From: Isurus oxyrinchus
Taxonomy: Eukaryota
Length of the DNA stretch: 64,000 nucleotides
Assembly: GCA_026770705.1 (NCBI GenBank)
Contig: JANJGN010000007.1
Location: forward strand, 112,778,001 to 112,842,000
Reading direction: 5' to 3'
Part shown: positions 2,755-47,943 of the stretch, piece after piece
How the letters are laid out: every line of letters starts with the position of its first letter
Position numbering within the stretch: the stretch's first letter is position 1
Translations under genes and position numbers: made by a program
The notes under the pieces: generated by a model
Databases searched by the model: none
What the model was told of the DNA's origin: nothing
Seen by the model: only the letters and a program-made list of their open reading frames with translations

Positions 2755-5339
2755 GGTGCTAATCCTGTGGTCCTACTTTTTGTAGCTCACAGGCACATTA
2801 ATATGGTCAGTAATACACCCACACATCTTTTTGCTAGCTCTCCCTTTACCTGTATCTATCTTGTGATAAATTGTTGTCAAGTATTATTTATTCTTAACCT
2901 TCAATTGCCTCAACCACAGATTCCTGATACTTCTACTTTAAATTTTTTTTTAACTCCCTCTGACCATGATCATCTTAAGATTCTCTTAGTCAGTTTCTCT
3001 ACTGCCTTGATCATTGAAAAATGTTTCCTTACTCTTTAGGCCATATTAACCATGTCATGTCAAAGGAGGTCTCTGTCTCTTGATTTTTGCTTATCTCCTC
3101 CTGTACAGTTCCAATGTTTCAGGCCAGATTATCAACTTCAGTTATCTTAAAAAGTTTGTATATTGTATCCTCTTTCCCTAGATATATCTCCTAACCTTAA
3201 TCATTTGCTCATACCATTTTACGTATGCAATAGTTATCATCTTATCCTGTTCAGGTTGTCTGGAGAGACTTTACAGTCCAATAAAGTATTCTCATAATAT
3301 TTTTAAAACAGAAATCAAACATTTCTATTCGATTCCAGACATTAACATGTTTTGCTTTGTCGTCTTCCCCTTAAACAACATTTTATTTTCTCAAAAGTAA
3401 CCCACTAGATTGTGTCTGACTTTTTTCTCGTTTTAAAATTATCCCAGATACAAAAAGCAGTGTTGTTGAGTTGCCTTCAACTCTGCCAAAAATTGGATCT
3501 CTTCCAAACTTCTTCAAGGCTCCAGGCTTATCTTTATATTTTGAGAATAGACTTACAAGTACATTTTAAACTTATTTTTCAGCATAGAAGCTTGCAGCAT
3601 TGAAATGGTATCAATTGTTATCAAACCTTTTAAACTTTTAAACCCTTTCCTTTTTGAGATCTTTCTCAGGAACCAACCTTAAATCTTTAAAATTTGTAAG
3701 AATTGTAATTTACACTATCAAAATTAAAACTACTTCTTTCTCTTGGGTATGGATTTGTATCCAGATTAAAAGTCCCACATGTTTAGCAACACATATTCTT
3801 TATCTTAGATGGCATCATAGTTTTTCAAAAGTAACTTGCTAAGAGGCCTGATACACATTGGTGAATGTGTTTGCATCAGATCCCCTGGCCTAATGGGTGA
3901 AGTCAATTTTTTTTAAGGTAAAGCTTCTAACCATGACTACGCTGTGGCACTGAAAATCTTCATATAAATTCTTAGATCCTTAAAGCTGCTAGAAATCTTG
4001 TTACATTTGCATTTATCTCGAAATAAAAGCACAAGGGTCCATTCTGCTTGAGGCGGAATGGATTGATTCATCAGCCTGGAAGCTGAAGCTGCTGGTGGAA
4101 AGAGTTACCTCCCTGTTAGTCTGAAACCTGCTGTATTTTCTTTAGAATATATTCAAATTGATTTTTGGCTAGAAATCTCAACTCGAACCTTATAACTTAA
4201 CATTGGTTTGTTTAATTATATTTTCCATCGCTCCGACTCTCAATCCACATTGTGAGGCTTTTAACTCAAAGTGCTGAAACTCCACACACAAATGACAATC
4301 CAGGGAAGAAAACACACCAAAGTTCACGCACAAATTTTTCATTGCCACAAATATATAAAGATATGAATATCTCTATTTTATAACATTTATCTTAACAACT
4401 TAAAACTTCCATACACTAAATGAAACTTCAGGTAGCACTGGGAAGAAAGGGATCTTTGAGACTTTCACCTACAGGGACAATCACATTCTCCTCTGCCCCT
4501 GCCTATTAACTGCTTATTAACCCCTCTACCCCCCCAAAGGGTTACCCTTCTCTCTCTCTCTTTTTCTCTCTCTCTCCCCAGCTTTAGTGACTTACATGAA
4601 TTTAATTTTTTTTCCCCCTTTTTTAAGTTATTTGCCAAAAATTCAGTGGGGATCCCTTCTGGTCCCTACTCTAGATTTTTGTCAGCAATGGCTGATGTTA
4701 GGTTTATAGTCCGACTACTATTATTGCTTTCTTACTAAGAGACGGATCCATCTCCAGTCTATGGTTCTCTCACTACACCAGACACAGGGAAACAGTCGAT
4801 ATCATTTTATTGCACCAGTTTTCTCATTACACTGGATACTAGGGGCAGGATTTTCCAGTTGGTGTGCGGGGGTGGGCCCCACATGTTCTCGTGTAAAATG
4901 ACGCGCGGTGACATCGGGTGAGCATCTCAACATCACCACACGCCATCTTGGTATTTTGTTGAGCAGGTGCGCGATGATATCCATTGCGCAACCGCCATTA
5001 ATTAACGGGCCACTTAAGGCCCTTGACTCACCAATTGACGCTGATTTTTTTGGCGCCCGTGCAATCTTCGGGTTGGTGCACAGGCACAATGGGCAGGCGG
5101 ATAGGACACGTTCATATAAACCTCATCCCAGGGGGTGATAAGAGGGCTCACTGGGGTCGTAAGGGTGCTTTCTCAAGTATTGAATTTTCAAAGTTATTGA
5201 AACTTGCCTGTGTGACCTGCAATACTTCAAAATGCATTCCAGCTGCTTTGTCTGGATTCTTAACCTTCAGGTGAGCACTCTGCAGTGAGGTATCTTTTTT
5301 GGGCCTGCAGGTTTCAGAAAGCCTTCCCTTAGCCTGGGA

Positions 5340-6528
5340 ATGGGAGCTAAACTGTCCACTGGAGGCACCTCCTCTTGAGGAGGAAGGGAGGGCTAGAAGA
5401 GGGAGGAGGCCAGGAGTGCACATTCATTCTCCAGGGGAGCCACCTTTGGGAGAGCCAAGGGGTAGGCCAAGGCAGAAGGGGGCCGCAGAAGACGCCACAA
5501 TCCTGCTGCCGGGATATACAGGCGGTGAAGCAATTACCTCAATGTGTCTGAGGTACAGTGCTGAAGGAGGCTCTGTCACTCAAGGGAGACAGTCAATTCT
5601 GTCTGATATCTCCGCTACCTGTGTGGGTGCATACCCCATGCAGGTGGCTCTAAAGATTACAGCTGCCCTCAACTTCTATGCCTCTGGCTCCTTCCAAGGA
5701 TCGGTGGGTGATCTTTGCAGTGTCTCCCAATCAGCTGTCCACACTTGTGTCAAACAGGTTACAGATGCTCTGTTTAGGCGTGCATTGGCCACTTCTGTTG
5801 AGACCTGGCAAGCCAGACACAGCAAACCAGAGTCTTTGCAGCGTTTGCAGGCTTCCCCCACATCCAGGGTGCAATAGACTGCACACACGTGGCCATCAAG
5901 GTACCACCAGGTGAGCCCAGTGCCTTCGTCAACAGGAAGGGCTTCCACTCCATGAATGTGTGTGATCACAGCATGCTGATATTACAAGTTTGTGCAAGGT
6001 ACCCAGGCAGCTCCCATGACATCTACATCCTCAGACACTCCCAGGTCCCGGGGCTATTCAGTGCTCTAGCCCGGCTTGATGGATGGCTGCTGGGTGACAA
6101 GGGCTATTCCCTCAGAAGGTGGCTCATGATGCCTCTCCGCCATCCAAGAACAGACGCTGAGCAGCGATACAATAGGTGCCATGCCTCCACAAAGACTGAG
6201 GTGGAGAGAACCATTGGTCTTCTCAAGATGCGCTTCCGATGCCTGGATCACTCAGGGTGCACACTCCAGTACCCCCCAGATTGTGTCAGTGATAGTGGTT
6301 GCATGCTGCACTCTCCGCAATCTTGTGCTGGAAAGGGGGGACGCAGTGGACGATGAAGACGTCGACGCAGTGTCTGCGGCTGCACGCGATGAGTCCAGCA
6401 ACGGGTCTGAGGATGAGCATGCACAGGGGAATGCTGAGGGGGTGGATGCTGACCTGGGCATGCTGCAGGGAGGCAGAGACATCAGGGAGGCTTTACCAGG
6501 ACAAGCCTGGGCAGTACTCACTACCTAA
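5340..6528 (+). pseudogene. Harbinger (HARBI1-like) DDE transposase, frameshifted
   Basis: Motifs ALNFYASGSFQ, GAIDCTHVAI, NRKGFHS, YPGSSHD, LLGDKGY, VERTIGLLKMRFRCLD spread over several frames. Confidence 0.92.
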
Positions 6529-6793
6529 ATGCCAAATCTGCCAGATTAGGAACAGTAACTAAGGGCCTTGTTAATAAAGCTGAATTTCCCACAAAGCACT
6601 CATAACATTTTTGGAAAACATGCACATAGAGAAGAAAAGAGGTACCCTCAGCCATGGTCACATGTCTGAATTTAATATCACAAGCAAAGAAACTTTAGCC
6701 AAACAAATGACAATGGTGTTCCAATTCAAAGCAAATTATAAAGACGTCATCTCGAGCCAACACAAAAACACCAGTGATAAACCCGTGGTGTGC

Positions 6794-9014
6794 CTAATGT
6801 ACGTTATGTTTATGTTTCCGGGTACTACGTCTTGATGCTGCCCCATTGCTGGGAGTGGCATCTGAGACAGCCTGCTGACTCTGCTGTCCTGTTGGCCTCA
6901 ATGACCTTGGCGGTTGTCCTCTAGCCCGTGGAGCCTGTGCTGGCCCCACCTGGGAGGGATCTGCCAGTTCCACAGCTGGCATCTCCCCAGTCGTCGTAGC
7001 CTCACCGGATGCTACGGTCACCGGGAGAAGGGCGGAGGAGCTGCCACCCTCACCTGGAGTGCCCTGAGAGGTACCCGCAGAGACGGCAGGCAGCTGCAGT
7101 GCCGACATGAAGTCGCTTCGGATATCCCTGCTCACCGTGGATGATAGGTACCGAGTTGGGAAACTTGGTGCCCAGACCATCCCCCACACTGGCACTGACC
7201 AGCTGAGGTTAATGCCGATGTGAGGGCTTGCTAGTCAGAGTGCGTCCCCAGGAAGCCCTGATGGGTCTCCTGGAAGAGCCTCTCCACGAGAGTCGCCATT
7301 CTCTCCATGGAGGACACATGGTGCTCAGACATGTGGCTCATTGCTTCGGCGATTGTCCGCATAGACTCCTCCACCATGGAGACCAAGCCAAGTATAGCCT
7401 CATGTATCTGCCCCAGATGCTCCCACACACCCGACTGCATTTCGTGCCCCTGCTGCATCGCGGACTCCATAGGCACATCATCAGGCATTGACTGAGCATG
7501 TACCTGGTCCCCTGCAGTCCTCTGACTGCTGGTGCCAGGGGCACTCTCTGCCTCTGCCAGCTCCTCCAGCGACTGTGAAGTGCCCTCATCGCTGTGCCCT
7601 GGGACACTAGCCGATGTTCTAACTCCCATCGAGGTGGTGGTTATGTGTGCTGGTGCCTGCCTGGCAGAGATGGTGTGACACTGGTGAGACTTAAGGGCAC
7701 TCAGGTGTGAGAGCGGGCCTCTGCTGCTGCTCCTCCCAGCCCTGCTCTGCTGATGCTGAAAGGAAGAACAAGGACATTGGATCAGTTAACGTGGAGACAA
7801 TGGCAAAGCGCATCCCTGTCTCCCAGATCATTATGTGCTCAACCTTCCATGGTCAAGCCATGTTGCAAAATTAAATCACTTAACATTCAGCACTGCTATG
7901 GCTGCTGGGAGAACAATGCTGACCTCACTGCTGGCCATACATACCTGGCTGTGGCATCCCAGCCTCACCGACACCAGTGGATGTGGACGCATGGTGCCTC
8001 TCCAAATCCAGGGCTTCCTGCTCAAACTGGCTGAAAATGGCTAACTGCGCCAGGCCGCAACCAAGCCTCACACGGTCTGCAGAATTATGAGCATTCTTCT
8101 CCTGAAAATGAAAGAAGAGCATTGATTTGTGCAAATTATACATGGAATCTTTTCGTGCACGGCCCACCCCAGCCAGAGTGGGATATATCAGGGCTCCAGT
8201 ACCTCCTCACCCTGCTGCTGACAAGCACTTGCACAAAGATGCTAGGCCAGTTCCCACCCCCCCACTTCTCCCTTGGACACATGCTGCCTACATCACATTA
8301 GGCACCACACGGTATATCCTTCCATAGCAAGGAGGCGCAAGCACGTGGACCACAGAGGACAGCAGATGGTTTGTTGCCACGCCAGCTTGAAGCTCCCCTC
8401 CCAGCATGTCATCACTCTGACTTGGACATGTCCTGCAGTTCAAGCACAGCGCCGAGGTGCAGCTCCTCCAGGCTGCCTCCAAAACAGTCATGTCGGTCTC
8501 AGTGTACCACATGCTGCAGGCGCAGAACCCATTTCTTCACCACCCTCTAAGGCTGACCTCGGCATGGGCAATATCTGATGGCCCACCCAGCAAAGGACAT
8601 ATGCTGTTAATGATTCAATGCACCCACTATATTCAGACGTAGGGGCGGAGGGGGGCGGGGTGTTGGAGCAGAGGGGAAAGCTGACCAGCTGGGTTAAGTG
8701 ACCAATGCCAACATTGTCCTCACCCTTCCAGAGCGCAACAGGTCATTGAAGCGCTTGCTTCACTGCAACACTGGATCCAGGTGCGCTGTACCACGTCACA
8801 GGAGCTCACTACCTCCTCCAAGGCACATTTTGTCATGTTGGTGGGGCCTCCTCCTCCTGTCCTGGGGAACCAGCACTTCCCGCTGTGCTGTCACTTCCTT
8901 GAGGAGGGCAGCAAGGCAGTCATCGGAAAAACAAGGGGCACACTGAGCCCCCACCCTACCTTCTGGTCTTGTGTCACCTCTATTGCCCCTCTGCAGAACC
9001 CTTCGCCCAGCCAT
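6794..9014 (-). pseudogene. Harbinger Myb/SANT-like DNA-binding gene, three exons (about 9014-8725, 8102-7945, 7756-6794)
   Basis: APCFSDDCLAALLKEV...KRFNDL; GT donor near 8724; acceptor ctttcattttcAG followed by EKNAHN; basic C-terminus RRSTRKHKH. Confidence 0.75.
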
Positions 9015-9240
9015 TGCGAGTAGCCTTTCCAAGGCTGCCAGGCCTTCCTTTATACAGGTCGCCGGGTCGCTATTGGACCTGGTGGTGCGTCCGCCACCGC
9101 CCATCCACTCTCGCTATGCATGGGAGTCGTGAGGTACACTGGGCCCGCCCATGAAAAATGGCAGTGTGGACTCGAGTCCCCCCGCCAGCCAGAAAATTCA
9201 GCCCTAGGAAACGGTCGATAGCATTTTACAACACCTTTTA

Positions 9241-9568
9241 AAAAAATATTCATTCATGGGATATGGGCATCACTGGCTAGGCCAGCATTTCTGGCCTATT
9301 GTTCAGAGGGAATTTTTAAGGGTCAACCACATTGCTGTGGGTCTGGAATCACATGTAAGCCAGACCAGGTAAGGTTGGCAGATTTCCTTTCCTGAAGGAC
9401 GTTAGTGAAACAGAAGGGTTTTTACGACAATCAACAATGGTTTCATTGACATCATCAGACTTTTAATTCCAGATTTTTTATTGAATTCAAATTTCACCAT
9501 CTGCCATGGCAGGATTCCAGGTCTCTGGAATACTAGTCTAGTGACAATACCACTATGCCACTGCATCC
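9241..9568 (-). mobile_element. tRNA-derived SINE with LINE-derived 3' tail
   Basis: Head TGGCATAGTGGTA; body shared with 19510 and 28035; tail ...cccatgaatgaa plus T/A run. Confidence 0.8.
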
Positions 9569-9765
9569 TTTTAGGTTTTCTCAGAGCTCTCTCTAGGAAA
9601 CGGTCTGTACTACCATTTTACTGCACGGTATTGGTTAATTGGCACCAAACTGTCCTTAGTTACTCCACTCACAGACCCATACTCTGGTTCGGATCCTCAA
9701 ACCAACCCACCGGTTTCCTGTCTTGAATGTCGACCGCCCTATCTAAATGGGTGGTAAGTGAACAT

Positions 9766-13131: not shown

Positions 13132-14341
13132 ATGGAAATTGTGGTCTCCGCTGTAGGCACCTCCTCTGAGGAGGAAGAGAGGGGCAGAAGGGAGAGGAAG
13201 CCAAGTGTCCCTATGCAGCTTCCAGGGGAGCAACCTATGGGGGGAGAGGTGCAGGCACAGGGAGCACAGGGCCAGCAGTAAGTCCAAGGCGGAGGGGGCA
13301 GCAGAAGACACCACTGTCCTGCAGCCAGGGTTTACACATGGCGATGCAGCTACCTCAATATGTCTGAGGTGCAAAGCCGAAGCTCAAGGGAGTCAGTGAC
13401 CCCTATCTGTCAGATGATTGGACCTGAGATCATTCCCCTCAATGTGGGCAGACACCCCATGCCAGTGACTCTGAAGGTCATAGGGGCCCTCAACTTCTTT
13501 GCCTCCAGCTCTTTCCAGGGGTCAGTGGGGGATCTGTGTGGAGTCTCCCAATCAGCTGTCCGCAGTTACGTCAAGCTGGTGACAAAAGCTCTGTTCAGGC
13601 GGGTATGACTTTTGTTCATTTCCGTACGGACAAGGCCAGCCAGGCTGAGCGAGCCAGGGGCTTTGCAGTGGTTGCTGGGTTCCCCTGAATCCAAGGTGCA
13701 GTTGACTGCACACATGTGGCCATCAAGGAGCCAGCGGTTCATCCGGGTGTCTTTGTTAACAGGAAGGGATTCCATTCCATTAACGTGCAGATAGTGTGTG
13801 ACCATAGGATGCATATCCTGAAAGTCTGTGCAAGGTACCCTGGCAGCTCCCATGACACTTACATCCTGAGACACTCCCAGGTGCCAAGGCTCTTCAGTGC
13901 TCCAGCCTGACTGGATGGATAGCTGCTGAAGGGTGACAAGGGCTATCCCTTGAAAAAGTGACTCATGACAGATGTCCACCGCCCAAGAACAGAGGCAGAT
14001 CAGTGGTATAACAGGAGCCATGCCTGCACAACTGCAGTGATAGAGAGGACCATAGGTCTTCTGAAACTCGCTTCCAATGCCTGGACCATTCAGAGGCAGC
14101 ACTACAATACCCCCAAAGCGGGTGTCATTGATAGTGGTTGCATGCTGCACTCTCAGCAATCTGGTACTGGTAATGGGGCATCCACTGGAAAAAGAGGACG
14201 ACGCAGCTGCACAGGCCACAGATGATGAATCCAGCACTGAGCCAGAAGAAGAGCACGGTGATGAGAATGCTGAGGGCATAGAGGCAGACCTCTGTAACCT
14301 CCAGGGAGACAGGGATGCCTTGATCCAATGAGCCTTTAGCT
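13132..14341 (+). pseudogene. Harbinger transposase, disrupted
   Basis: ALNFFASSSFQ, VDCTHVAI, NRKGFHSINVQ, YPGSSHD, GDKGY, IERTIGLLK. Confidence 0.9.
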
Positions 14342-14734
14342 AGGCTGCCAAATAAGCCCTACGACCTCAGGCCAGGGCTGCCGCCTCCATCTCAGATGTC
14401 TGAAATAGCCCTTTCCTTTGACCCCAAAGTCCACCCAGTGCCTGTGCAATAAAGTTTTCAGCCACCCACATCCAGCAGCATTACATACTGACATACCCTG
14501 CATCACATTAAATAAAAAAGGTGAAGCATACTCAGGTCATTACGACAAAAGAAAATTTACCTCATGTTGACAATCAAAACAAATTAACAGAACCTTCTCT
14601 GATCTTCAACCCCAGACCAGTTAAAATAAACAAAACATTGCACAACAGACGATCACCCGTGACTAGCCCCTCTTGTGCTCATAGTCCCTTAAACTTACAT
14701 TTGTGAGTGCTACGTCTCGGTGTTCTCTCCTCAC

Positions 14735-14980
14735 TGGGACATGTTTTTAATTCAAAAATAAAATTTTTATTTGATATTTATTTGCTGTAGGAAACCTCAT
14801 CCCACCCGTGGATGAGGTTTCCTAAAAAATGTAAAGGCCACTTGGCCTTTTTGTCTGCCCGCCAACTGTAAGGTTTGGCCGTAAGCAAGTACACGATGAT
14901 GTTGGGACGCACACCCGATGTCATTGCACATCATTTTATGCTCAGGCGCGCACCCGCACACCGAGCAGAATATTCTGCCC
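14735..14980 (-). mobile_element. Half copy of the Harbinger-type MITE
   Basis: Reverse-complement similarity to 20198-20525; ends AATATTCTGCCC followed by ATA. Confidence 0.75.
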
Positions 14981-15461
14981 ATAGATTTAAACAGACCCCT
15001 GGCAAAAGCACACTCTGGACAGTCAAATTCAAAATGAGTTTCTTTCAGCTCTGGGTCCTTGCAAAAAGCGGCTTGAGGCTTACAGGTTGGAGGCTTTAGA
15101 TCTTAGAATCCCTCTCTTTTACCAACAGCCTTCTTTTCCTTTATACATATTTTTCTGTTTGAAATTCTCATTGTTTCACTAGGTTTTTTGAACTTCGAAC
15201 AATAAAATTCTTTCACAGCACCAATTTTATTAGTAAGCTTTGGAAAAAATAAACACATTTCTAAACTTCACCTGGCTAGGTGACACATTTCACCCCTCCT
15301 TTGAAAACAATTTAGTCTGGTTTATTTCAAAATGCAAATGTTCCCTTGACACCCATGTTTCTAAACTTCCCCATGTTTATCTAATTAACGTTTCAAACCT
15401 AACCTCTCTTCATAGATCAAAGCACCCAGACTAGGTGTCTCTAATTCAATTAAATCTCACA

Positions 15462-15504
<43 letters not shown>

Positions 15505-15564
15505 TTAGGCACATCGCATTATTACCCTATTTTACAATAAATTTCAATATCATTATGAGAACTA
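14981..15564. repeat. Unclassified insert, possibly an LTR fragment, with a (CA)n tract at 15457-15502
   Basis: Has no counterpart in the first Harbinger; AT-rich with AATAAA motifs and a CA microsatellite. Confidence 0.35.
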
Positions 15565-17300
15565 TTATTTCTCCTTGACACCTTGATGACCTTGGCAGTC
15601 CTGGGAGGAAGCGGCCAGTTTCACGGCTGGCATCTCCACATTCACCTCAGCACCATCAGATGCCCTGGTCACCGGCAGAGGGGTGGAGGAGCTGCTGCTG
15701 TCATCCATAGCACCCTGAGAGGAGCCCGCAGAGACGACAGGCAGCTCGTGTGCCAATATGAGGTCGCTATGGACTTCCCTGCTCACCATTGAAAGACAGG
15801 CATCTAGCTGGGATACCGGGTATCTCATCCATCTCCCACATGAACACTGACTGCCTGAGGTCAGTGCCTATGTGAGAGCTTGTAGGTCCGAGCGCAACCC
15901 CAGGAATCCAATTCTGTTTCTGGAGCTGCCTCTCCATGAGGGATCACCACTCTCTCAATGGAGGAGGCAGTGCGCTCACCATGAGGGTCAACACAGTGCT
16001 CATGCTCCACATGAACTCCTCCGTGATGGAGACCATAGCATGCAGACCCTCATGGATCTCCAGCAGATCTTCCTGCATGTCTCACTGGATATTCAGCATC
16101 TGTCGCCTAATGGATGACTCCAGATGCTCATCATCTGCCTTCAACTGAGCATTGTCCTGGTCTGCAGCAGTCCTCCGACTGCCGGTGCCCTAGGCACCCT
16201 CTGCCTCTGCCTGCACCTCATGCGAGTATGAAGTGCCCTCACTGCTGTGCATCCACATTCCAGCTGAAGATCTAAGGCCCACCAAGGTGCTGGTATCTGC
16301 GCTGGTGCCTGGTTCAGAGAATGGATGCGACACAGGTGCATCTGAAGCCTGGCAGTCCTCTGGCATCGGGGTGGGTCTTCGGGGTCCTGCGTTTGGGTGC
16401 ATGCTGGCAAACCCAAGGGGGAACAACGACATGTCATTAGTTTATGTCATCACACTCTCACTGTGCATACCAGGCACCCTGGTGAGACCATGGAGATCTG
16501 CATCATGGTGCCATTGTCTTTCAGTGATCAATGGGGAATCCAGTTTTGAGGCTGCCATCAGTGATAAGACTACACAAGAATGTTTGCATCATCTGAAACT
16601 CTCACCTCAGTGCATGCACTCTTACCTTCGCCTGACACCCCGGCCTCTCTGGGGCTGGTTTACCGAGGTGCCTCTCCAGCTCCAAGGTGTCCTGCTGGTA
16701 TCTAATAGGATTAGGAGGTTAGCGGGGCCTCCACCGGTCTGCAACTCTTTAATGTTTTTATAGGCCATCTTCTCCTGAAAGGATAGAGGAGCATTGATTA
16801 GTCCACTCTCTACCTGTAGCGCCATTGCAGCCTGGACAGCCCCACTTGAGGAGCACCTTGCAGGGCACATTTGAGCTGCAGCCCTAGAGCCACAAGGCAC
16901 TCAGTCCAAGCAGCCAGGACTCACCTCCTTTGCCAACTCTGGCGTCATTGACAATTGGCACTCAGACTCTAACACCCCTGAGCTCTACTGGGGGACGACC
17001 AGCCCATAACACTTCAGCACATTGATCCATTCCAACATGGTACTCACCTTTCCTGAGTGCAGCAGGTCGTTAAACCTCTTGCAGCACTGGGCCCAGGTGC
17101 GCCACACAACATCATGGCTGCTGACCAGCAGTGCCATCTCCTCCAAGCTCTTTTTGTAAGGTGTGGTGGCCTCCTCCTTCCATCCTTGGGGACAAGGGCA
17201 GCCACCTCGTCCAGGAGGACCACTCATTTGAAAACCAGGGGCTGAGTGTCCACCTGACCTTCCTCCCCACCTGGCATTTGCAGCCACATTGGAATGCATA
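15565..17300 (-). pseudogene. Myb/SANT-like gene of the second Harbinger
   Basis: WRTWAQCCKRFNDLLHSGK then GT donor; acceptor ctatcctttcAG then EKMAYKN...ELQTGGGP; 3' exon similar to 6900-7600. Confidence 0.7.
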
Positions 17301-17980: not shown

Positions 17981-19509
17981 ACTAAACAAAATCAGTGTGT
18001 AGAATCCTAAAATTTTCTGAGATACGAATCTTTAAAATGTGGCTCATTATAGACACTTTTATGACAATGAATTTAGGATGTACAGTGAAAAGAGTTTGTT
18101 CCACTAGGTTGATTTCCAGTGATGCACAGACCTGCCATTGTGATTAAATGGTTCCAGAAATAAGACGGCATCATTTTTTCATTCCACTTCTAAAAGATCT
18201 GTCCATTCATCTCTGCCCTGTGCAATATTACAAGCTTTTTGCGATGCTCAGATGTGGTTACATTTTTGTGATTTGTGAAATAGAACATTCAAATTATTTG
18301 AGACCTATTTATTTTATAGCCACATACTCAGCAGAGCATTGAAACAGTGAGAAATCAATAGGTCCCATGGGTTGTTCAAAGAAACTGCAAAATCTATTAT
18401 AAATATGAGTACTGGACTGGTAAGCATGAAGAGCTGATCTTACCTTTAGAAAGACTTACGATCTGGAATTTAGCAGCAGGTTATCATAAGACATGTATCA
18501 GGACTGCCACCAGGAATACAAAAAGTCTTACAGACCATACTTCAAGCTGTTTTTATTTTTATGATTTTGCTGTTTTTTATATCTGCTGTATTTTGCAGTT
18601 TTTAACATTTTCTACTTTGCACACTAGATAATATATTCTCATTGCCCTGGACAACACAGCAGTTTATGTTTAAGACAATAGAACTGTTTATGTGATAGCT
18701 AAGGGAGCAGGATAAACTGCATTGCCAGTGGCATTAGTCTCAGTGGTTCATATTAATAGGGGTGAATAGGAACAAGTCAGACTAGGGAAAGGGGGAAGGA
18801 GTTTAGGAAGCAAAGGAAATTGGAGAATTACTGTCCCTGGAAGTGCTAGCTGTATTTTGGTGTTGACTGTGTTGCAGCTGGAATGTACATCATTGCACTA
18901 CTGTGGTAGAATGTTTTGCCTTCAACTTATCTCTTCCAATTAGGACATTTCCTTTTATAGGAAGGAAAGGCTGAGATGAGGTTACTGCAAAAGTTGTCTG
19001 ATGAACACAGTGTTCTCATACTGAGGGCTCAAAGGTAAAACCAGCATATTCAGAGAAATTACTATCCACTTCCATTGACTTGTTCATTAACAGGTCAAGT
19101 CAATTGTGAACAATTGGACTTTTTCATCATTGAACCACTTAAAGAAGCCATTCAGCCCACAGAATCTGTCCCAGCTCTTTGTGAGAGCAATCTAAAATTG
19201 ATCTCACTGTTCTCATTACATAGCACTGTGTCTTCCTCTGCTTAAAATGTTTATCCATTTTTCCCTTAAATTATGAAATGGTCTCTGCCCCAACCATTCT
19301 CTGTTGCAAAGCATTTCATGCTCTTACAATACTCAATAACTTTCTCCTAACTTTGCTCAACTGTTTAGCAACAATTTTAAATTGTTGACCCTTTCTTATC
19401 ACTGACTCCCCAACCAAAGGAAATAGGATAAATCAGGAAGACTATCAGAATCCTCAAGATACAAAACAATTCAATTGCATTTCCTCTTAATCTTCACCAC
19501 TCCAGGGGT

Positions 19510-19915
19510 ATAATAGCAGTGGTCATGTTACTGGACAAGCAATTCAGAGGCCTAATGATGTGGAGACATGAGTTCAAATCCTACCATGGCAGCTGAGGAA
19601 TTTAAATTCAATTAGTTGAAAGATAATCTCGAATAAAAGCTAGTATCAGCAATAGTGACCATGAAACTACCAGATTGTCATAAAGTTCCAATGGTTCACT
19701 AATACTCTTCAGGGAATGAAATCAGCTGTCCTTATCTGGATTGGTTTATGTGTGTGTCTCCAGGCCCCCAGCAAAGTGGTCGTCTCTTAATTGCCCTCTA
19801 AAATGGCCTTAACAAACCACTCAGTTGTATTCAAGTCAGCTCACCACCACCCGCTTGAGGTCAATTGGGGATGAGCCTTATCAGTAACAGACTCATCCAG
19901 TGAATAAATTTTATA
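19510..19915 (+). mobile_element. tRNA-derived SINE (head, body and LINE tail)
   Basis: A-box-like sequence near 19513-19523; B box AGTTCAAATCC at 19571-19581; body ends ccactcagttgta at 19829, followed by a tail matching the LINE 3' end at 21775-21880. Confidence 0.82.
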
Positions 19916-20197
19916 AAAGCTCCAGTGGAAATCGTCTAGTCCTTATTCTCAAAACAATTATTTCCCATCTCTGGCATAATACCAGCATCTATGTTGGATG
20001 TACCTCATTGATTTACTATCTTTTCTATATTAGGATGCCCAAAATTATACACAGTGCTCAAGTTGTAGACCTAACCATTAATTTTCATTGCTTCTTCACT
20101 CTTGTACTCTGCGCTTCTATGTATAAAACCCAAAATACTGTTGGCCTTTTGAATGATTTTATCACACTTTCGGGGAATTATGTATTTAAATCCCTAT

Positions 20198-20856: not shown

Positions 20857-21772
20857 TATGTCTCTAGTTTGAAAATTTGTGTCCATCCATTTTTCTTTAG
20901 CATCTTTTCACTGACTGCATATCCCTATTCCTTGTCTTTCCTGCCAAAATATATCACTTTTTTTTTATCATTTATGGGATGTGGACGTCGCTGGCTAGGC
21001 CAGCATTTATTGCCCATCCCTAATTGCCCTCTGATCATCCCACAAACATTCCTATTCCTCTTTAAATCTTTTACACTCTTTTTTGCTATCTGACAAGTTC
21101 CATAGTTTTGTGCCATTCTCTCTCCGCCCGAGAGCAAAAGTAGATCCAGCACTGACACCTGACATGCACCACTTCCAGTCATTGTTTAATCTGAGTGATA
21201 TCCATTGATTTTAACCTTTCTCCTCTTGCTCATGGTCCAATTATTTATCTATGTTTTTTTGCTTGTACAATATACTTGAATTTTTGTAAAAAGCCTCCTG
21301 TGAAACAGCTTATAAAAAGCCTTCTAAAAATCCATGAACACAATATCTATTGCATTACCCTTATCCAATTGGCATTTCTTCAATTGAAGCTCTGTTAAAT
21401 TTGTCACAGTTTGTCTTTAAAAATTCTATGCTGGTTGTCCTTGATTAAGCCAAGCATTTCTCAATGCTCACTAATTTTATCTCAAATTATAAATTATTAT
21501 AGTTTGTTCATAACTGACATTAAACAAATTGGTCTGTAAATTTCCCAGTTTGGCTTTCTGACCCTTCTTGAACAGAGGTGTTAGTTACACTGACTGCACT
21601 CCATTTCCAGGCACAGTTTAGTCAGCCATATTTGGTGATTTATGTCCCCTTTACATTTAACTTAATCCAAATTACACGAGACACATCAAGTGCTGCTAAG
21701 TTTTCTTACTGACATGTTTGATGTTCAAGGTAAATATTAATTGTTATTAAAAGGCTATCTATACATAGACTT

Positions 21773-22650
21773 CTTTTTTATTCATTCATGGGATGTGGGC
21801 ATCATTGGCTAGGCCAGCATTTTCTGCCAATCCCTAATTGCCCTTGATAAGGTGATGATGAGCTGCCTTCTTGAACCACTGCAGGGGAGTTCTAGGATTT
21901 TGACAGTGATGGAATGGTGATATATTTCCAAGTCAGAATGCTGAGTGGCTTGGAGGGGAACGTCCAAGTGATAGTGTTCCCATGTGCCTGCTGCCTTTGT
22001 CTTTCTGGATTGTTGCGTTCATGGATTTGGAAGGTGCTCTCTAAGCAGCCCTGGTGTGTTCCTGCAGTGCATCTTGTAGATGGTACACACAACTGCCACT
22101 GTGCGTCGGTGATGGAGGGAGTGAATGTTTATGCCAATCAAGCGGGCTCTTTGCCCTGGATGGTGTCAAGCTTCTTGAGTGTTGTTGGAGCTGCAGTCAC
22201 ACAGACAAGTAGAGAGTATTCCATCACACTCCTGACTTGTGCCTTGTAGATGATGGACAGGCTTTGGGGAGTTAGGAGGTGAGTTGTAGCTACAGTATTT
22301 ATATGGCTAGTTCAGTTCAGTTTCTGGACAATGGTAACCCCCAGGATGTTGATAATGGGGAATTCAGTGATGGTAATGCCATTGAATGTTAAGGGGTGAT
22401 GGTTAGTTTCTCTATTGTTGGAGATGGCCATTGCCTGGCACTTGTGCGATGTGAATGTTACCTGACAGTTGTCAGCTTGAGTCTAGATATTGTCCAGTTC
22501 TTGCTGCATTTGGACATGGACTACTTTGGTATCTGAGGAGTCACGAATGGTGCTGAACATTGTGCAATCATCAGCAAACATCTTCACTTCTGACCTTATG
22601 ATGGAAGGAAGGTCATTGATGAAGCAGCTGAAGATGGTTAGGCCTAGGAC
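21773..22650 (-). mobile_element. 3' part of the APE-RT LINE (same family as 28035-30900)
   Basis: LGLTIFSCFINDL...MFADDCT; 3' tail ...cacatcccatgaatgaataaaaaa. Confidence 0.88.
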
Positions 22651-22679
22651 ATATGCACATATAAAGGTGTCAGGAAATA

Positions 22680-25540: not shown

Positions 25541-25574
25541 AACTAATCTCCTAACCTAACCCAATCAATAATTT

Positions 25575-25675
25575 AAATATAAACAGAAAATGCTGGAAAC
25601 ACTCAGCAGGCGTCTGGCAGCATCTGTGGAGATAGAAACAGAATTAATGTTTCGACTCCGTATGATTCTTCCAGT
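25575..25675 (-). mobile_element. Penelope-like pLTR fragment
   Basis: aaacagaaaatgctggaaacactcagcagg...catctgtggaga, similar to 37400-37520. Confidence 0.65.
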
Positions 25676-25859: not shown

Positions 25860-28030
25860 GAGAACCATAGAAAAGTTATGATGCAGAAAGAGGCCATTCA
25901 GCCCATTGTGTCTGCGCTGAACAAAAAGAGAAAAAGAAACGAGCTGCTCATTTTAATCCCACTTTCCAACACCTGGTCCATAGTCTCGCAGGTTACAGCA
26001 CTTCAGGTGAAGATCCAGGTACCTTTTAAATGAGTTGAGCATTTCAGCCTCAACCACTAACTTAGGCAGTGAATTCCAGATTCCCACCATCCTCTGGGTG
26101 AGAAAGTTTTTCCTCATGTTCCCTCTAACCCTTCTACCAATCATCTTAAATCTATGCCCCCCCCCCCACCCCCCACTAATTGACCCCTCAACTAGGGGAA
26201 ACAAGTCTTTCCTGTCTCTCCTATCTAGGCCCCTCATAATTTTGTACAGCTCAATTAGATCACCTGTTAGTCTCCTCTTTTCTAAGGAAAACAACCCTAG
26301 CCTATCCAATCTGCCCTGGTAGCTGCATTTTTCAAGCCCTGGCAACATTCTTGTAAATCTCCTCTGCACTCTCCCCAGAGCAATTATGTTCTTCCTGTAC
26401 TGTGGTAACTAGAACTGTACTCAAAATTCCAGCTATGGCCTAACCAGCATTTTATATAGTTCCATCATTACATCCCTGCTTTTGTATTCAATACCTTGCT
26501 CAATAAAGGAAAGCATTCCAAATGCTTTCTTGATCATCTTGTCCATCTGTCCTGCTACCTTCAAGGACCTGTGGACATGCACTCCAAGGTCTCATTTCAA
26601 TAACTTCCTATTTATTGAATATTCCCTTGCTTTGTTTACACCCCCCCTCCCACTCCCCCCAAATGCATTACCTCACATTTCTCTGGATTGAATTCCATTT
26701 GCCATTTCTCCACCCACTCAGCCAAACCATTGATATCATTCTGGAGTCAACAGCTGTCCTCTTCACTTGCACAGTCAATTTTTGTGTCATCTGCAAATTT
26801 CCCAATTATGCCTCCCACATTTAGATCTAAATCATTAATATATACAACAAATTGCAAGGGCCCTAACACTGAACCCTGTGGAACACCACTGAAAATTTTC
26901 CAATCTCAAAATCCATTGACCATTACCCTTTGTTTCCTGTCACTGAGCCAATTTTGGATCCAACCTCACCCTGCCACCTTACCCTGTATCCCATGAGATC
27001 TCACTTTCCTGACCAGTCTGCCATGCAGGACCTTGTCAAATGCCTTACTGAAATCCATGCAGACAACATCCACTGCACCACCCTCATCAATCCTCCTTGT
27101 TACTTCCTCAAAAAATTCTATCAAGTTAGTAAGTCATGATCTTCTCCTAACAAAACCATGCTGACTATCCCTGATCAATCTGTGCCTTTCTAAATGACAG
27201 TTTATTCTGTCTCTCAGATTCCAATCATTTGCCCACCACTGAAGTCAGACTGATCGGCCTATAATTTTCTGGCCTATCCCTCGCACCCCTTTTAAATAAT
27301 GGTACAATGTTCGCAGACTCCAATCCTCTGGGACCTCACCTATATTTAGTGAGGATTGGAAAATGATCCCCAGAGCATTCGCTAATTGCCCCTAGCTTCC
27401 TTTAACAGCCTGGGATACAATTCATCTGGCCCTGATGATTTATCCACCTGCAAGGATGCCAGTCCCTCCAGTACTTCTTCTCTCACTATGTTTATTGTAT
27501 CTAATATTTCATACTGCTCCTCATGAGCTAGAATGTCTGCATCATTCCTCTCCTTAGTGAAGACAGAGAAAAAGTACTCATTGAAATCCCTGCCTATATC
27601 TTCAGCATCAACCCACAGGTTACCAGGTTACAGGTACATCTTTGATAGGTCCTACCTTTTCTTTAGTTATTCTCTTGCTCTTAATGTACTGGTAAAATGT
27701 CTTAGGATTTTCTTTGATTTAACTGGCCAATTTTTTTCATATCCTCTCTTTGCTTTCCTAATTTCCATTTTTACTTCACCCCTGTCCTTTCTAAATTCCT
27801 CTAGGCTGTCTATAGTATTACATGTTTTGAGAGTGTCATAAACTTTCTTTTTCTGTTTTATCTTGGCCTGTTTGCGTCTAGATAACCAGGGGGCTCTAGA
27901 TTTGGCCGTACCAGCCCTTTTCTTTGTGGGGACATATCTACACAGTGCCGTAGAATCTCACCTTTGAATGCCTCCCACTGATTTGACATGGTGTTTCCTT
28001 CTAATAGTCGTATCCAGTCCACTCTCGCCA
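25860..28030 (-). mobile_element. CR1 LINE ORF2 3' half, decayed
   Basis: QRRFTRMLPGL...LFSLEKRRLTGDLIELYKIMRG; GVPQGSVLGP; KFADDTK; CR1-type 3' UTR near 25860-25920. Confidence 0.88.
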
Positions 28031-28034
28031 GGAT

Positions 28035-30900
28035 GACGATGACGTAGTGGTATTTTCAATGCACTAGTAAACCAGGGTAAGGCTCTGGGGACCCAGGTTT
28101 GAATTCTGCCATGGCACATGGTGGAATTTGAATTTAGTAAAAATCTGGAATTAAAAGTCTGATGATGACCATGAAACTATTGTTGATTGTTGTCCTTTAG
28201 GGAAGGAAATCTGTCGTCTTTACCTGGTTTGGTCTACATGACACCAGACCCACAGCAATGTGTTTGAGTCTTAAATGGCCGAGTAAGCCACTCAGTTGTA
28301 ACAAACCGCTACAAAAAGGAATAAACCTGGCATCAACCAAGGCACCGGAAACGACAACGGCAGTCTCAACCCTGTTGACCCTGAAAAGTCCTCGTTACTA
28401 ACATCTGGGGGCTAGTGCCACAATTGGGAAAGCTGTCTCACAGACTTGTCAAGCAATAGCCTGACATAGTCATCCTCACAGAATCATACCTCACAGATAA
28501 TGTCTCAGACACCATCACCATCCCTGGGTGTGTCCTGTCCTACTGGTGGCAGCACAGTGGTATACAGTTGGGAGGGAGTTGCCCGGAGAGTCCTCAACAT
28601 TGACTCTGGACCCCATGAAGTCTCATAGTATCAGGTCAAACATGGGCAAGGAAACCTCTTGCTGATTACCATGTACCACCCTCCCTCAGCTGATGAATCT
28701 TGTTAATTCACCACTTGGGGGAAGCACTGAGGGTGGCAAGGGTGCAGAATGTACTCTGGGTCTTCAATGGACTTCAATGTCCATCACCAAGAGTGGCTTG
28801 GTAGCACCATTACTGACTGAGCTGGCCAAACCCTAAATACATAGCAGTTATGACTGGGTCTGCGGCAGGTGGTGAGGGAACCAACAAGAGGGAAAAACAT
28901 ACTTGACTTCATCCTCACCAACCTGCCTGCAGCAGATGCATCTGTCCAAGACAATATTGGTAGGAGTGACCACCGCACAGTCATTGTGGAGGCGTAGTCC
29001 TGCCTTTGCATTGAGGATATCCTCCATCATGTTGTGTGGCACTACCATTGTGCTAGATGGTAGTGCCACAAAAATAGGATAAATTTTGAATAGATCTAGC
29101 AACTGAAGACTGGGCATCCATCAGCAACAACAGAATTGTACTAGAACACAATCTGTAATCTCATGGCCCGGCATATCCCCCACTCTACCATTACCATCAA
29201 GCCAGGGAATCAACCCTGGTTCAATCACGTGTGCAGGAGGGCATGCCTGGAACAGCACCTGGCATACCTAAAAATGAGGTGTCAACCTGGTGAAGCTATA
29301 ACACAGGACTACTTGTGTGCCAAGCAGCAAGTGATAGACAGGGTTAAGCAATCCCACAATCAATGGATCAGATCTAAGGTTAAACAATCCCACAATCAAC
29401 AGATCAGATCTAAGCTCTGCAGTCCTGCCACATCCAGTTGTGAATGATGGTGGACAATTAAACAACTCACTGGAGGAGGAGGTTCCACAAATATCCCCAT
29501 CCTCAATGATGGAGCCCAGCATATCAGTGCAAAAGATAAGGCTGAAGCATTTGCGACAATCTTCAGCCAGAAGTGCTGAGTGGATGATTCATCTCAGCCT
29601 CTTCCAGAGGTCCCCAGCATCACAGATGCCAGTCTTCAGCCAATTTGATTCAATCCACGTGATAACAAGAAACAGCTGAAAGCACTGGATAGTGCAAAGG
29701 TTATGGGGCCTGACAATATTCCAGCAGTGGTACTGAAGACTTGTGCTCCAGAACTTGCCGTGCCCCTAGTCAAGCTGTTCCAGTACAGCTACAACACTGG
29801 CATCTACCTGGCTATGTGAAAATTGCCCAGGTTTGTCCTGTACACAAAAGCAGGACAAATCCATCCCAGCCAATTACCACCCCATCAACCTACTCTCCAT
29901 CATTAGTAAAGTAATGGAAGGGTCATCAACAGTGCTATCAAATGGCTCTTGCTTAGCAATAACCTGCTCATTGAGCACAGTTTGGGTTCCGCCTGGGTCC
30001 CTCAGCTCCTGACCTCATTACAGCCTTGGTTTAAATATGGACAAAGGAGCTGAACTCCCAAGGTGAGGAGAGAATGACTGCCATTGACATCAAGGCCGCA
30101 TTTGACTGAGTGTGGCATTAAGGAGCCCTAGCAAAACTGGAGTCAATGGGAATCATGGGGAAAACTCTGCTGGTTGAAGTCATACCGAGCACAAAGGAAA
30201 ATGGTTGTGGTTGTCGGAGGTCAGTCACCCCAGCTCCAGGACATCACCACAGGAGTTCCTCAGGGTAGTGTCCTGGGCCCAACCATCTTCAACTGTATCA
30301 TCAATGATCTTCCTTCTATCATAGGGTCAGAAGTGAAGATGTTCACTGATGATTGCACAATGCTCAGCACCATTCACGACTCCTCAGATACTGAAGCAGT
30401 CCATGTCCAGATGCAGCAAGACTTGAACAATATCCAGGTTTGGGCTAACAAGTGGCATGTAACATTCACACCACACAAGTGTCAGGCAAAGACCATCTCC
30501 AACAAGAGAGAATCCAACCATCGTCCCTTGATGTTGAATGGCATTACCATCACTGAATCCCCCACTGTCAACATCCTGGGGGTTGACCATTGACCAGAAA
30601 CTGAACTGGGTTAGCCATATAAATACTTTGGCTCCAAGAGCAGGTCAGAGGCGAGGAATCATGCGACAAGTAACCCACCTCCTGACTCTCCAAAGCCTGT
30701 CCACCATCTACAAGGCACAAGTCAGGAATGTAATGGAATACTCCCCATTTGCCCAGATGAGTGCGGCTCCTACAACACTGAAGAAGCTGGACACCATCCA
30801 GGACAAAGCAGTCCGCTTGATTGGCACCACATCCACAAACATTCACTCTCTGCACCACTGACACAGGGTAGCAGCAGTGTGTACCATCTACAAGATGCAC
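28035..30900 (+). mobile_element. APE-RT non-LTR retrotransposon (CR1/L2-Jockey group) with tRNA-like 5' head and no ORF1; decayed and 3'-truncated
   Basis: A box TGACGTAGTGG at 28040-28050; B box GGTTTGAATTC at 28096-28106; APE motifs NIWGL and PDIVILTES from about 28400; RT motifs GPDNIP, DIKAAFD, GVPQGSVLGP, FTDD. Confidence 0.88.
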
Positions 30901-32950: not shown

Positions 32951-33007
32951 CCGACGATTCAGTTACCAAAGCATACTGTTCATTGACCAGTGGGATTTTG
33001 CAGGTTT

Positions 33008-33290
33008 CTTTTTCATTCATAGGATGTGGGTGTTGCTGGCTAGGCCAGCATTTATTGTCCATCCCTAACTGCCCTTGAGAAGGTGATAGTGAGCTGCCTT
33101 GTTAAACTGCAGCAGTACATGTGGTGTAGGCACATCCACAGTGCTGTTAGAGACGGAGTTCCAGGATTTTGAGCCAGTGCAATTGAAGAAATGGCAATAT
33201 ATTTCCAAGTCAGGATGGTGAGTGGCTTGTAGGGGAACTTCCGCTTGGTGGTGTTCCCATGTGTCTTCTGATATGCTTTTCCTGGCTTTG
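33008..33290 (-). mobile_element. 3' end fragment of the APE-RT LINE family
   Basis: Matches 21775-22000. Confidence 0.8.
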
Positions 33291-37392: not shown

Positions 37393-37850
37393 TAAAATAA
37401 AAGCAAAATACTGCGGATGCTGGAAATCTAGAACAAAAGCAAAAATACTTGAAAAACTCAGCAGGTCTGAGAGCATCTGCGGAGAGGGATACAGTTGACG
37501 TTTCGAGTCCGTATGACCCTTCATCAGAACTAAAAAATATAGAAATGAGATGAAATATAAGCTGGTAGAGGGGGGTGGGATAGGAGGAGCTTGATAGGGG
37601 GCCAGGGATAGCTGAAGGCCAAGAAGAGACTGCCAAAGATGTCATAGACAAAAGGACAAAGGGGTGTTGATGGTGGTGATATTATCTAAAGGATATGCTA
37701 ATAGGGACATTAAGGGTGGCAAGCAGGACAAGCTAGAGACACAGATAGTCCTTGTGGGGGTGGGGTAGGGAGAAGGGATCGAAATGGACTAAAAGGTGGA
37801 GATGAAACAATAGATTGAAATAAATTTAAAAGTAGGTGAGAAAAGAAAAC
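37393..37850 (-). mobile_element. Penelope-like pLTR and 3' region
   Basis: aaatactgcggatgctggaaatc...; colinear with 45172-45610. Confidence 0.85.
37493..37531 (-). ncRNA. Minimal type-I hammerhead ribozyme with canonical core
   Basis: AGUU CUGAUGA A GGGUC auacg GACUC GAAAC GUC AACU: stem I AGUU/AACU, a 5-bp stem II, palindromic ACGU stem III and a GUC cleavage triplet. Confidence 0.85.
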
Positions 37851-45062: not shown

Positions 45063-45232
45063 GTGGTGTATGTACTGCAGCTAAAATACTGCAGTGTACT
45101 CTGATACAAATCACAAAATATTGTAGTGTATTCCTATGTAGACTACACAAATTCAGCTTATAAATTACTTAACAAAAACAGAATTACCTGGAAAAACTCA
45201 GCAGGTCTGGCAGCATCGGCGGAGAAGAAAAG

Positions 45233-45271
45233 AGTTGACGTTTCGAGTCTTCATGACCCTTCGACAGAACT
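45233..45271 (-). ncRNA. Hammerhead-like motif with CUGUCGA core
   Basis: Reverse complement of the 47810-47848 motif. Confidence 0.7.
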
Positions 45272-45338
45272 TGATTTCGAGTCCAGGAAAGAGTTGAAAT
45301 ATAAGCTGGTTTAAGGTGTGTGGCGGGGGGGGGGGGGG

Positions 45339-45379
<41 letters not shown>

Positions 45380-45687
45380 GTGCTTGTGTAGACAAACAAG
45401 CAGTGATAGAAGCAAATCATCAAAAGATGTCAGTGACAATGGGACAAAAGAACACATAGGTGTTAAAGTTAAAGTTGGTGATATTATCTAAACGAATGTG
45501 CTAATTAAGAATGGATGGTAGGGCACTCAAGGTACAGCTCTAGTGGGGGTGAGGGGAGCATAAAAGATTTTAAAATATTTAAAAATAGTGGAAATAGGTG
45601 GGAAAAGAAAAATCTATAAAATTTATAGGGAAAAAAAAGGGGAAAAAAAGGGGGAAACAGAAAGGGGGTGGGGATAGGGGAGGGAGC

Positions 45688-46315
45688 TCACGACCTAAAG
45701 TTATTGAATTCAATATTCAGACCGGAAGGCTGTAAGGTGCCTAGTCGGAAGATGAGGTGTTGTTCCTCCAGTTTGCGTTGGGCTTCACTGGAACAATGCA
45801 GTAAGCCAAGGACAGACATGTGGGCAAGAGAGCAGGGTGGAGTGTTAAAATGGCAAGCGACAGGGAGGTTTGGGTCATTCTTGCGGACAGACCGCAGGTG
45901 TTCTGCAAAGCGGTCGCCCAGTTTACGTTTGGTCTCTCCAATGTAGAGGAGACCACATTGGGAGCAACGAATGCAGTAGACTAAGTTGGGGGAAATGCAA
46001 GTGAAATGCTGCTTCACTTGAAAGGAGTGTTTGGGCCCTTGGACGGTGAGGAGAGAGGAAGTGAAGGGGCAGGTGTTACATCTTTTGCGTGGGCATGGGG
46101 TGGTGCCATAGGAGGGGGTTGAGGAGTAGGGGGTGATGGAGGAGTGGACCAGGGTGTCCCGGAGGGAGCGATCCCTACGGAATGCCGATAGGGGGGGTGA
46201 AGGGAAGATGTGTTTGGTGGTGGCATCATGCTGGAGTTGGCGGAAATGGCGGAGGATGATCCTTTGAATGCGGAGGCTGGTGGGGTGATAAGTGAGGACA
46301 AGGGGGACCCTATCA
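45688..46315 (-). CDS. Penelope C-terminal Zn-linker and GIY-YIG endonuclease (fragment, open frame)
   Basis: CPRKRCNTC...NLVYCIRCSQCGLLYIGETKRKLGDRFAEH...EQHLIFRLGTLQPSGLN. Confidence 0.88.
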
Positions 46316-47714: not shown

Positions 47715-47745
<31 letters not shown>

Positions 47746-47883
47746 CACCTCCCACACACACACAACTTAAACCAGCTTATATTTCAACTCTTTCCTGGAC
47801 TCGAAATCAAGTTCTGTCGAAGGGTCATGAAGACTCGAAACGTCAACTCTTTTCTTCTCCGCCGATGCTGCCAGACCTGCTGA
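46315..47883 (+). CDS. Penelope-type reverse transcriptase (open frame; truncated at about 47660 and running into the pLTR)
   Basis: KPADKGGAVVV, LPKIHK, GRPIVS, MDVQSLYTSI, GVAMGTRMGPSYA, RYIDD, PFLDL. Confidence 0.92.
47810..47848 (+). ncRNA. Hammerhead-like motif with CUGUCGA core (tandem copy 1)
   Basis: AGUU CUGUCGA A GGGUC augaa GACUC GAAAC GUC AACU. Confidence 0.72.
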
Positions 47884-47943
47884 GTTTTTCCAGGTAATTC
47901 TGTTTTTGTTTTATATTTCAACTCTTTCCTGGACTCGAAATCA

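Follow-up and report, generated by a model that had tools for sequence, protein, structure and literature searches.

Nearly all of the sequence of two short retroposons in a 64-kb window (the whole stretch of DNA that was analysed) comes from the initial ~270-300 bases of a LINE and, joined to these, the poly-A tail of the same family. The unusual part is that their tRNA-like head is carried by the autonomous LINE itself, across sharks and rays. This LINE is best explained as a shark/ray Zenon element, that is, a member of the CR1 group with one ORF, a poly-A tail and a length of ~3.2-3.3 kb. We suggest that a tRNA-derived head was probably captured once, long ago, by a Zenon LINE and that repeated internal deletions then gave rise to the SINE-like forms. 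A first, sequence-only reading of this DNA had offered two alternatives, i.e., deletion of the ORF or capture of a SINE head by the LINE. Our analysis supports that interpretation, and the two alternatives are probably successive, with the capture first and the deletions after it.

Zenon-type retroposons in the window

Among named proteins, shark gene models are the nearest matches to this DNA, which is thus shark- or ray-like. Seven pieces of a Zenon-type retroposon family lie in the 64 kb: one LINE copy with its 5' end (L28), four 3' ends and two short elements (S19 and S9). In a search with a profile built from the three heads, exactly three copies in the window have the head, namely S19, S9 and L28. 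S19 (19506-19912, plus strand, ~407 bases) is made up of a tRNA-like head, a body and the LINE tail, and its head is of the Squalus type, as judged by eye against published consensus rows. S9 (9244-9570, minus strand, ~327 bases) is made up of a head, a body and a shorter LINE tail. Its head is of the Carcharodon type, and a deletion of ~21 bases has removed the B box. Both are built from the 5' and 3' ends of the LINE.

L28 is a broken LINE on the plus strand with a single ORF. Its head and body occupy 28030-28300 and include an A-box-like motif (28040-28050), a decayed B box and two internal deletions. The LINE-specific part (28301-30898) begins with ~90 bases and continues into the broken ORF, in which Pfam identifies an endonuclease (PF14529, ~28767-28982) and a reverse transcriptase (RT; PF00078, ~30195-30584). 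There is no room for an ORF1, as only those ~90 bases separate the head from the endonuclease start. L28 ends at ~30898 and has no in-line tail of its own. It is connected to the tails through T21 (21772-22651, minus strand), a 5'-truncated copy with the RT end, the 3' UTR and an A-rich tail, because T21 holds both a tail and an RT region that matches L28 (497 of 583 bases identical, 30269-30898). The remaining 3' ends are T33 (33005-33288, minus strand), the tail-only copy T20 (20956-21032, minus strand) and an old, diverged one (8320-8618, plus strand; matched by the query T33 at an nhmmer E of 1.3e-12). The poly-A tail expected of a Zenon element is seen in the A-rich ends of T21, T33 and T20.

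T33 restarts ~55 LINE-map bases past the point where L28 stops and lies on the opposite strand, which suggests an inversion of ~2.4 kb with one breakpoint inside the LINE. T33 is thus probably the 3' end of L28 itself. No target-site duplication that would confirm L28 and T33 as one insertion was found. Twin priming was rejected as the origin of this layout, since the pieces lie in an order that a plain inversion explains.

The 5' sequence of L28 matches the elasmobranch Zenon consensus rows over the initial 400 bases of those rows, both in motif searches and by eye, and the estimated length of the LINE is ~3.2 kb as against 3244-3314 for five consensus rows. The published elasmobranch Zenons (CarCar/HypSab/RhiTyp/ScyCan/SquAca_Zenon; PMC13343379) are like L28 in their 5' 400 bases, single ORF, A-rich tail and length. 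A search for full-length close relatives gave seven matches, of which four are single-ORF elements of distant relationship and three are gene models from sharks that contain pieces of LINE. The nearest full-length relatives of L28 are single-ORF elements (27-33%), and the head-to-LINE join is spanned by none of the seven. The shark gene models P0006, P0007 and P0008 have exons from the ORF of an L28-type LINE and are probably annotation artefacts. A 36-base tandem duplication lies within the L28 ORF (29342-29414). The stretch adjoining L28 (27700-28029) reads as the minus-strand remnant of another LINE ORF2, presumably CR1-like, and has no Pfam match.

Other features of the window belong to different elements. 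Pieces of a Penelope-like element are located at 45163-48074, 49033-49261, 50096-50261, 37393-37566 and 25572-25671. Its RT frame (46201-47880, plus) and GIY-YIG frame (45691-46419, minus) are on opposite strands, and its repeats of 100-134 bases are in tandem and inverted arrangements. There are two related copies of a Harbinger-like transposon (5275-7686 and 13147-16338), with a DDE_Tnp_4 transposase at 5802-6350, and a 22-base unit in 36 tandem copies with 99% matches (57069-57863). An open frame of 225 codons on the minus strand (572-1246) has a hydrophobic stretch and no Pfam match, and is possibly a host exon.

Head, body and tail of the short elements

S19 had been described as following the LINE 5' end and then jumping to the LINE 3' tail, and both parts of this description hold. 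S19 parallels the LINE 5' end through a 13-base stretch, in which 19817-19829 is identical to 28288-28300, and the two sequences diverge straight after. Compared with the LINE start, S19 and S9 give nhmmer E values of 3.9e-20 and 4.6e-35, local alignment scores of 173.5 and 267.5 (with maxima of 60.5 and 54 over 200 shuffles for each), and 192 of 277 and 190 of 243 identical aligned columns. The tail match of S19 is genuine yet decayed. It amounts to 58/78 identical bases against 33005-33105 and 54/78 against 21778-21872, with nhmmer E values of 7.5e-5 for the 33 kb reference and 0.008 for the 21.8 kb reference. The alignment scores (68.5 and 56) exceed all 200 shuffles, the maxima of which are 42 and 44. 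The element at 9.2 kb, S9, has head, body and tail in common with the LINE as had been proposed, with 42 of 45 tail bases identical to the 21.8 kb copy and the head at the E value of 4.6e-35. S9 and both tail references are on the minus strand.

We took the criteria for a SINE from the SINEBase definition (PMC3531059). S19 and S9 are short (<700 bp) and non-autonomous, and both have a tail in common with the partner LINE. As in a short internally deleted element (SIDE), the 5' and 3' ends of the LINE explain the whole length, fully for S19 and except for 7 bases for S9.

The head in Zenon LINEs of sharks and rays

The head starts all seven elasmobranch Zenon consensus rows, from five species, and none of the three rows from hagfish and coelacanth (PMC13343379, Supplementary Table 2, first 400 bases). 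The rows with the head are from Carcharodon, Hypanus, Rhincodon, Scyliorhinus and Squalus (three rows), and those without it are two from hagfish and one from coelacanth. That no LINE family carries the head, the outcome named beforehand as fatal to the sequence-only reading, is therefore ruled out. The head-to-LINE join is identical in the seven elasmobranch rows and continues into LINE-specific sequence. In addition, of 1,003 consensus rows, each compared over its first 400 bases, those seven are the only ones in which four short head motifs co-occur. The same source (PMC13343379) counts 2313 near-full-length copies for the Carcharodon Zenon family and says that no elasmobranch Zenon had previously entered a repeat library.

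We also compared the translated head and body with 16 proteins that have an endonuclease N-terminus. The N-termini of P0011, P0015 and P0024 match at p 0.001, which is the floor of a test with 1000 background windows, and that of P0010 matches weakly (p 0.03). The N-terminus of P0018 fits by eye alone and is not significant, and the N-termini of P0022 (58 residues) and P0026 (40 residues) do not match the head. Nine begin too late or are too short to judge, and most of the 16 are gene models that are possibly spliced. Because seven of seven elasmobranch rows start with the head and the join is spanned by three of the 16 proteins, which are encoded at other loci, the head is, as judged from these rows and proteins, a family-wide part of the LINE and not a chance insertion.

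When the junction-spanning frame was compared with longer proteins, none of 37 candidates scored. P0012, one of eight matches, was discarded as an unrelated protein of low complexity, and the atlas look-alikes of P0015 gave no usable match. A search for stray shark DNA in bacterial and archaeal genomes gave three exact 19-base matches versus ~4.3 expected by chance, none of which extends.

tRNA likeness of the head

The A and B boxes were scanned with a general box consensus. In S19 the B-box-like motif (19572-19580, plus strand) is the sole match at <=1 mismatch in the first 120 bases, and the A-box-like motif (19512-19522) is degraded. An A box is seen in S9 and L28 and a B box in S19, and both boxes are plain in the published rows. 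By eye, the head has an anticodon-like stem-loop that reads as Thr. The decayed heads in the window are not called as tRNA by ARAGORN or Rfam, and the folding of heads, tails and the whole of S19 is no better than that of shuffles, so the putative tRNA origin of the head rests on the box motifs. A SIDE, as described for Persaeus, has neither tRNA homology nor a pol III promoter; the elements here depart from this, since box motifs are present.

The sense strand of L28 has no run of five T and two runs of four, one of which is a private change, and T21 and T33 have neither kind of run. Such a depletion could point to pol III read-through, but it is not significant against shuffles, and a transposase control is free of four-T runs too.

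The two junctions

In S19 the LINE 5'-shared part extends to 19829 and the tail-derived part follows directly (junction region 19817-19835, plus strand). There is no filler, since nothing private to S19 separates the part shared with the LINE 5' end from the part shared with the LINE 3' end, and the join has a microhomology of 3-5 bases inside a looser match. In S9 (9278-9310, minus strand) the junction falls at 9302/9301. Compared with S19, S9 exits the body ~25 bases earlier and enters the tail ~45 bases later. Thus, LINE 5' sequence in S19 reaches ~25 bases past the S9 join, and S19 has ~45 more tail bases. Of the earlier claim that S9 joins its parts sooner, at ccctctgaa/caat, the earlier exit of ~25 bases stands, but the join is less clean than was read, because 7 extra bases follow it.

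These 7 bases complete a perfect 8-bp inverted repeat beyond the junction (arms 9298-9291 and 9285-9278). In the in-window alignment, both S9 and L28 have many private deletions. Given the extra inverted-repeat bases and the other private deletions in S9, the S9 join may have changed once the element had inserted, and its "earlier" junction may be a private deletion. Each junction is represented by a single copy in the window. No target-site duplication adjoins S9, and S19 has a weak 6-bp candidate (19500-19505, plus strand, with its partner at 19920-19925), so short that it could be due to chance. A 13-bp direct repeat around S9 (9206-9218 and 9590-9602) is not a plain target-site duplication, since it is offset by ~27-31 bases from each end of the element.

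Two types of head

Substitutions and several indels set the Squalus rows apart from those of Carcharodon, Scyliorhinus and Rhincodon. We typed the heads at 19 positions that distinguish the Carcharodon row from the Squalus-1 row, and these were scored by eye rather than computed. S19 is of the Squalus type at 16 of the 19 positions, of the Carcharodon type at two and of neither at one. S9 is of the Carcharodon type at all 14 scorable positions, as is L28 at 17 of 18, with the Squalus type at the other one. The in-window alignment gives the same split, with indels common to S9 and L28 against S19, and 45 shared columns versus 24 and 24. The typing concerns the heads; the published rows are visible for their first 400 bases, and the tails fall outside. 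What is new here, by eye, is the Squalus-type head of S19 as against the Carcharodon-type head of S9 and L28.

On this typing, the head of each short element would also occur on a full-length LINE. As the short elements have heads that are found on LINEs and joins that differ, the short form appears to have arisen, or to have been re-headed, at least twice. The by-eye typing would fit short elements that nest within partner LINE lineages.

Pairing between the body and the tail

For the final ~90 bases of the S19 body, pairing with three LINE tails exceeds background (p 0.005-0.01, with 400 background windows and many windows tested). S9 and L28 have no such body-tail pairing, and part of that stretch is lost in both. 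The body end of S19 (19786-19799) is reverse-complementary to the conserved tail start in T20 (21020-21032) at 12 of 13 bases, which none of 200 shuffles equalled. Among 24 comparisons of direct and inverted 13-base head-tail matches, this one (S19 body versus T20, inverted) is the only one to beat shuffles. A 5'-3' helix in the LINE RNA is possible, and the pairing could possibly guide deletions.

Discussion

The explanation that we favor, one capture followed by repeated deletions, would proceed in the following way. Before the shark-ray split, one Zenon ancestor would have gained a 5' end of ~300 bases, which comprised a tRNA-like head with A and B boxes and the body. The source of this head was most likely a SINE, by template switch or read-through. 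We infer the direction of capture from the outgroup Zenons, which are without the head, and from the consideration that a tRNA-like head must derive from a tRNA or a SINE. The captured head would then have diverged together with the LINE, giving at least two head types. Short non-autonomous copies would have appeared when the whole ORF was lost, presumably because the reverse transcriptase jumped, or a deletion occurred, at short matches located near the body end and in the 3' UTR. The absence of private sequence, the microhomology and the head types together suggest that this ORF loss took place in different LINE lineages, with S19 probably from a Squalus-type and S9 probably from a Carcharodon-type lineage. 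In SINE/LINE biology, a promoter region and a tail suffice for mobilisation in trans. A short copy that retains the promoter-bearing head and the tail bound by the LINE protein would thus be a ready-made SINE, and each short form could have been amplified as a family, with use of the pol III promoter.

Several observations argue for deletion. S19 has no private sequence and S9 has 7 extra bases, as deletion predicts, and a single LINE-side join in the seven rows stands against two different body-to-tail joins in S19 and S9. Against repeated deletion, there is one copy per junction, and S9 has private deletions and a rearranged junction.

The main rival, a SINE-first origin with repeated head exchange, is rather unlikely. 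An ordinary SINE with head, body and Zenon tail would have donated its head and body to the LINE, the short elements would be the descendants of that SINE, and the heads would have been swapped since by template switching or gene conversion in the shared body. The requirement that a tRNA-like head originate from a tRNA or a SINE is consistent with this rival. The 5'-side breaks of S19 and S9 are within ~25 bases of each other, as expected of one ancestral junction, and the body end in the published rows repeats ~12 of 13 tail bases (by eye), possibly as a vestige of a SINE tail that was captured. Furthermore, the exchange of modules among SINEs is well described (PMC4824008, PMC11481361). However, the capture point would have to coincide exactly with the body/tail join of the SINE, with no SINE-only sequence left. 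One of the two joins would also have to be remade from LINE sequence regardless, since S19 has ~25 more LINE 5' bases and ~45 more tail bases than S9. If a separate SINE lineage and the LINE exchanged heads within the body that they have in common, the resulting pattern would be identical to the one that we see.

It is improbable that the short elements are one-off products, that is, LINE insertions deleted internally, or deleted after insertion, that were never amplified and founded no SINE families. Such an origin would fit the single copy per junction in the window, the many private deletions in S9 and L28, and the target-site duplication, which is weak (6 bp) for S19 and absent beside S9. 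Yet of the three copies in the 64 kb that bear the head, two are short, and what these two lack is just the ORF. Their breakpoints fall within ~25 and ~45 bases on a map of ~3.2 kb, which would be rare for random private deletions unless short repeats strongly steer them. That L28 is merely a SINE that came to lie directly upstream of a 5'-truncated LINE is scarcely credible, even though there is a single such copy in the window and chimeric SINE/LINE insertions in sense orientation are known for Alu and L1 (bioRxiv 10.1101/2025.02.02.635956), because the join is present in seven of seven elasmobranch rows and in proteins of other loci, and the single loci L28, P0015 and P0024 oppose a mis-extension of the consensus rows through SINE copies.

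The capture-and-deletion explanation can be taken further, to a bolder proposal that is doubtful. Shark and ray Zenons might run on the captured SINE pol III promoter, and the end of the 5' UTR might pair with the 3' UTR and loop out the ORF. Jumps of the reverse transcriptase might then keep making full head-body-tail SINE families, and the body might be the remnant of an ancient conserved SINE domain. The low number of T runs, not significant against shuffles, and the pairing of the S19 body with the tails, not seen for S9 or L28, are consistent with this proposal, as hints that fall short of proof.

Some BovB LINEs bear SINE pieces at their 5' end. RTE-1_DAn and the elements related to it are also LINEs with tRNA-like sequence, which matches many SINE2 elements; unlike the shark LINE, they belong to the RTE clade, and the passages of PMC5786205 that concern them mention them as matches to remove and describe no derived short forms. 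The background claim of the sequence-only reading, that SINEs normally share just the tail with the partner LINE, is too strong, as bipartite SINEs of RTE and Vingi LINEs and Zenon derivatives in Lepidoptera are known. Bipartite SINEs with both 5' and 3' LINE parts are reported for RTE and Vingi, the only LINEs that contributed 5' parts in a Repbase survey (PMC5786205). These SINEs, including Bov-tA, AfroSINE and CoeSINE4/5, resemble the shark elements in that body and tail both match the LINE; in contrast, their RNA head was added to a deleted LINE and is missing from the autonomous LINE (PMC5786205). In the shark case the head sits on the autonomous LINE, which is of the CR1 group.

The closest precedent is Persaeus of Lepidoptera, a deletion derivative of Zenon without a tRNA head, which originated at least four times when Zenon underwent internal deletion at sites of microhomology (PMC6740152). 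This SIDE is like the shark elements in being a short 5' plus 3' derivative of Zenon with a poly-A tail, breakpoint microhomology and several independent origins. It is unlike them in that it is reported to have no tRNA or 5S homology, no pol III promoter and a taxon-specific middle (PMC6740152), whereas the shark elements lack a middle, and the 5' part that they share with the LINE is a tRNA-like head with A/B boxes. The main text of PMC13343379, on the elasmobranch Zenons, describes neither the head nor short derivatives; the terms "tRNA", "promoter", "polymerase III" and "non-autonomous" do not occur in it, and "SINE" occurs once, in a reference title. Our full-text literature search found no account of a SINE-headed Zenon or of short shark derivatives; subscription papers were mostly outside its range, and annotation in Repbase, Dfam or SINEBase is possible.

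Among the SINEs of cartilaginous fishes, HE1 was considered as the identity of the short elements. The HE1 tail is a CR1-type microsatellite and is not A-rich like that of the shark Zenon elements. A motif from a bivalve V-SINE primer, which we take to be part of the V domain, is absent from the window elements. The pair of HE1 and HER1 was set aside on these grounds and is probably a different family, though this V-SINE and LINE of sharks and rays are similar to our elements in combining a tRNA-derived SINE and a partner LINE with a common tail (PMC3747384). SacSINE1 and the CmiSINEs are likewise tRNA-headed SINEs of cartilaginous fishes, but the domains that they carry are Deu or CORE and their tail is of the L2 type (PMC5499810), as against the Zenon-type tail of the elements here. 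We also looked for the 66-base Meta domain of MetaSINEs after the head and found no by-eye likeness to the bivalve Meta rows given in PMC4824008. Motif searches of SINE supplements of PMC4824008 and PMC11481361 did not find the body motifs, which divergence would hide there. Two blocks of 12-15 bases in the body (28150-28200, 19655-19700) resemble, in order and by eye, the Deu part of bivalve BivaMD-SINE1 (PMC4824008), which is a lead only. The head resembles, by eye, that of BivaCORE-SINE1 (PMC4824008).

How SINE bodies originate is an open question, and in the standard model LINE-derived parts acquire an RNA head only once the ORF has been lost. In the Zenon of sharks and rays, a LINE of the CR1 group itself bears the head and the body, and does so in thousands of near-full-length copies. 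Existing genomes allow a direct test of whether SINEs repeatedly arise from one LINE lineage and of whether pol III can drive a LINE that codes for protein. Annotation is affected too, because short copies will be mistaken for LINE fragments and the LINE's 5' end for a SINE.
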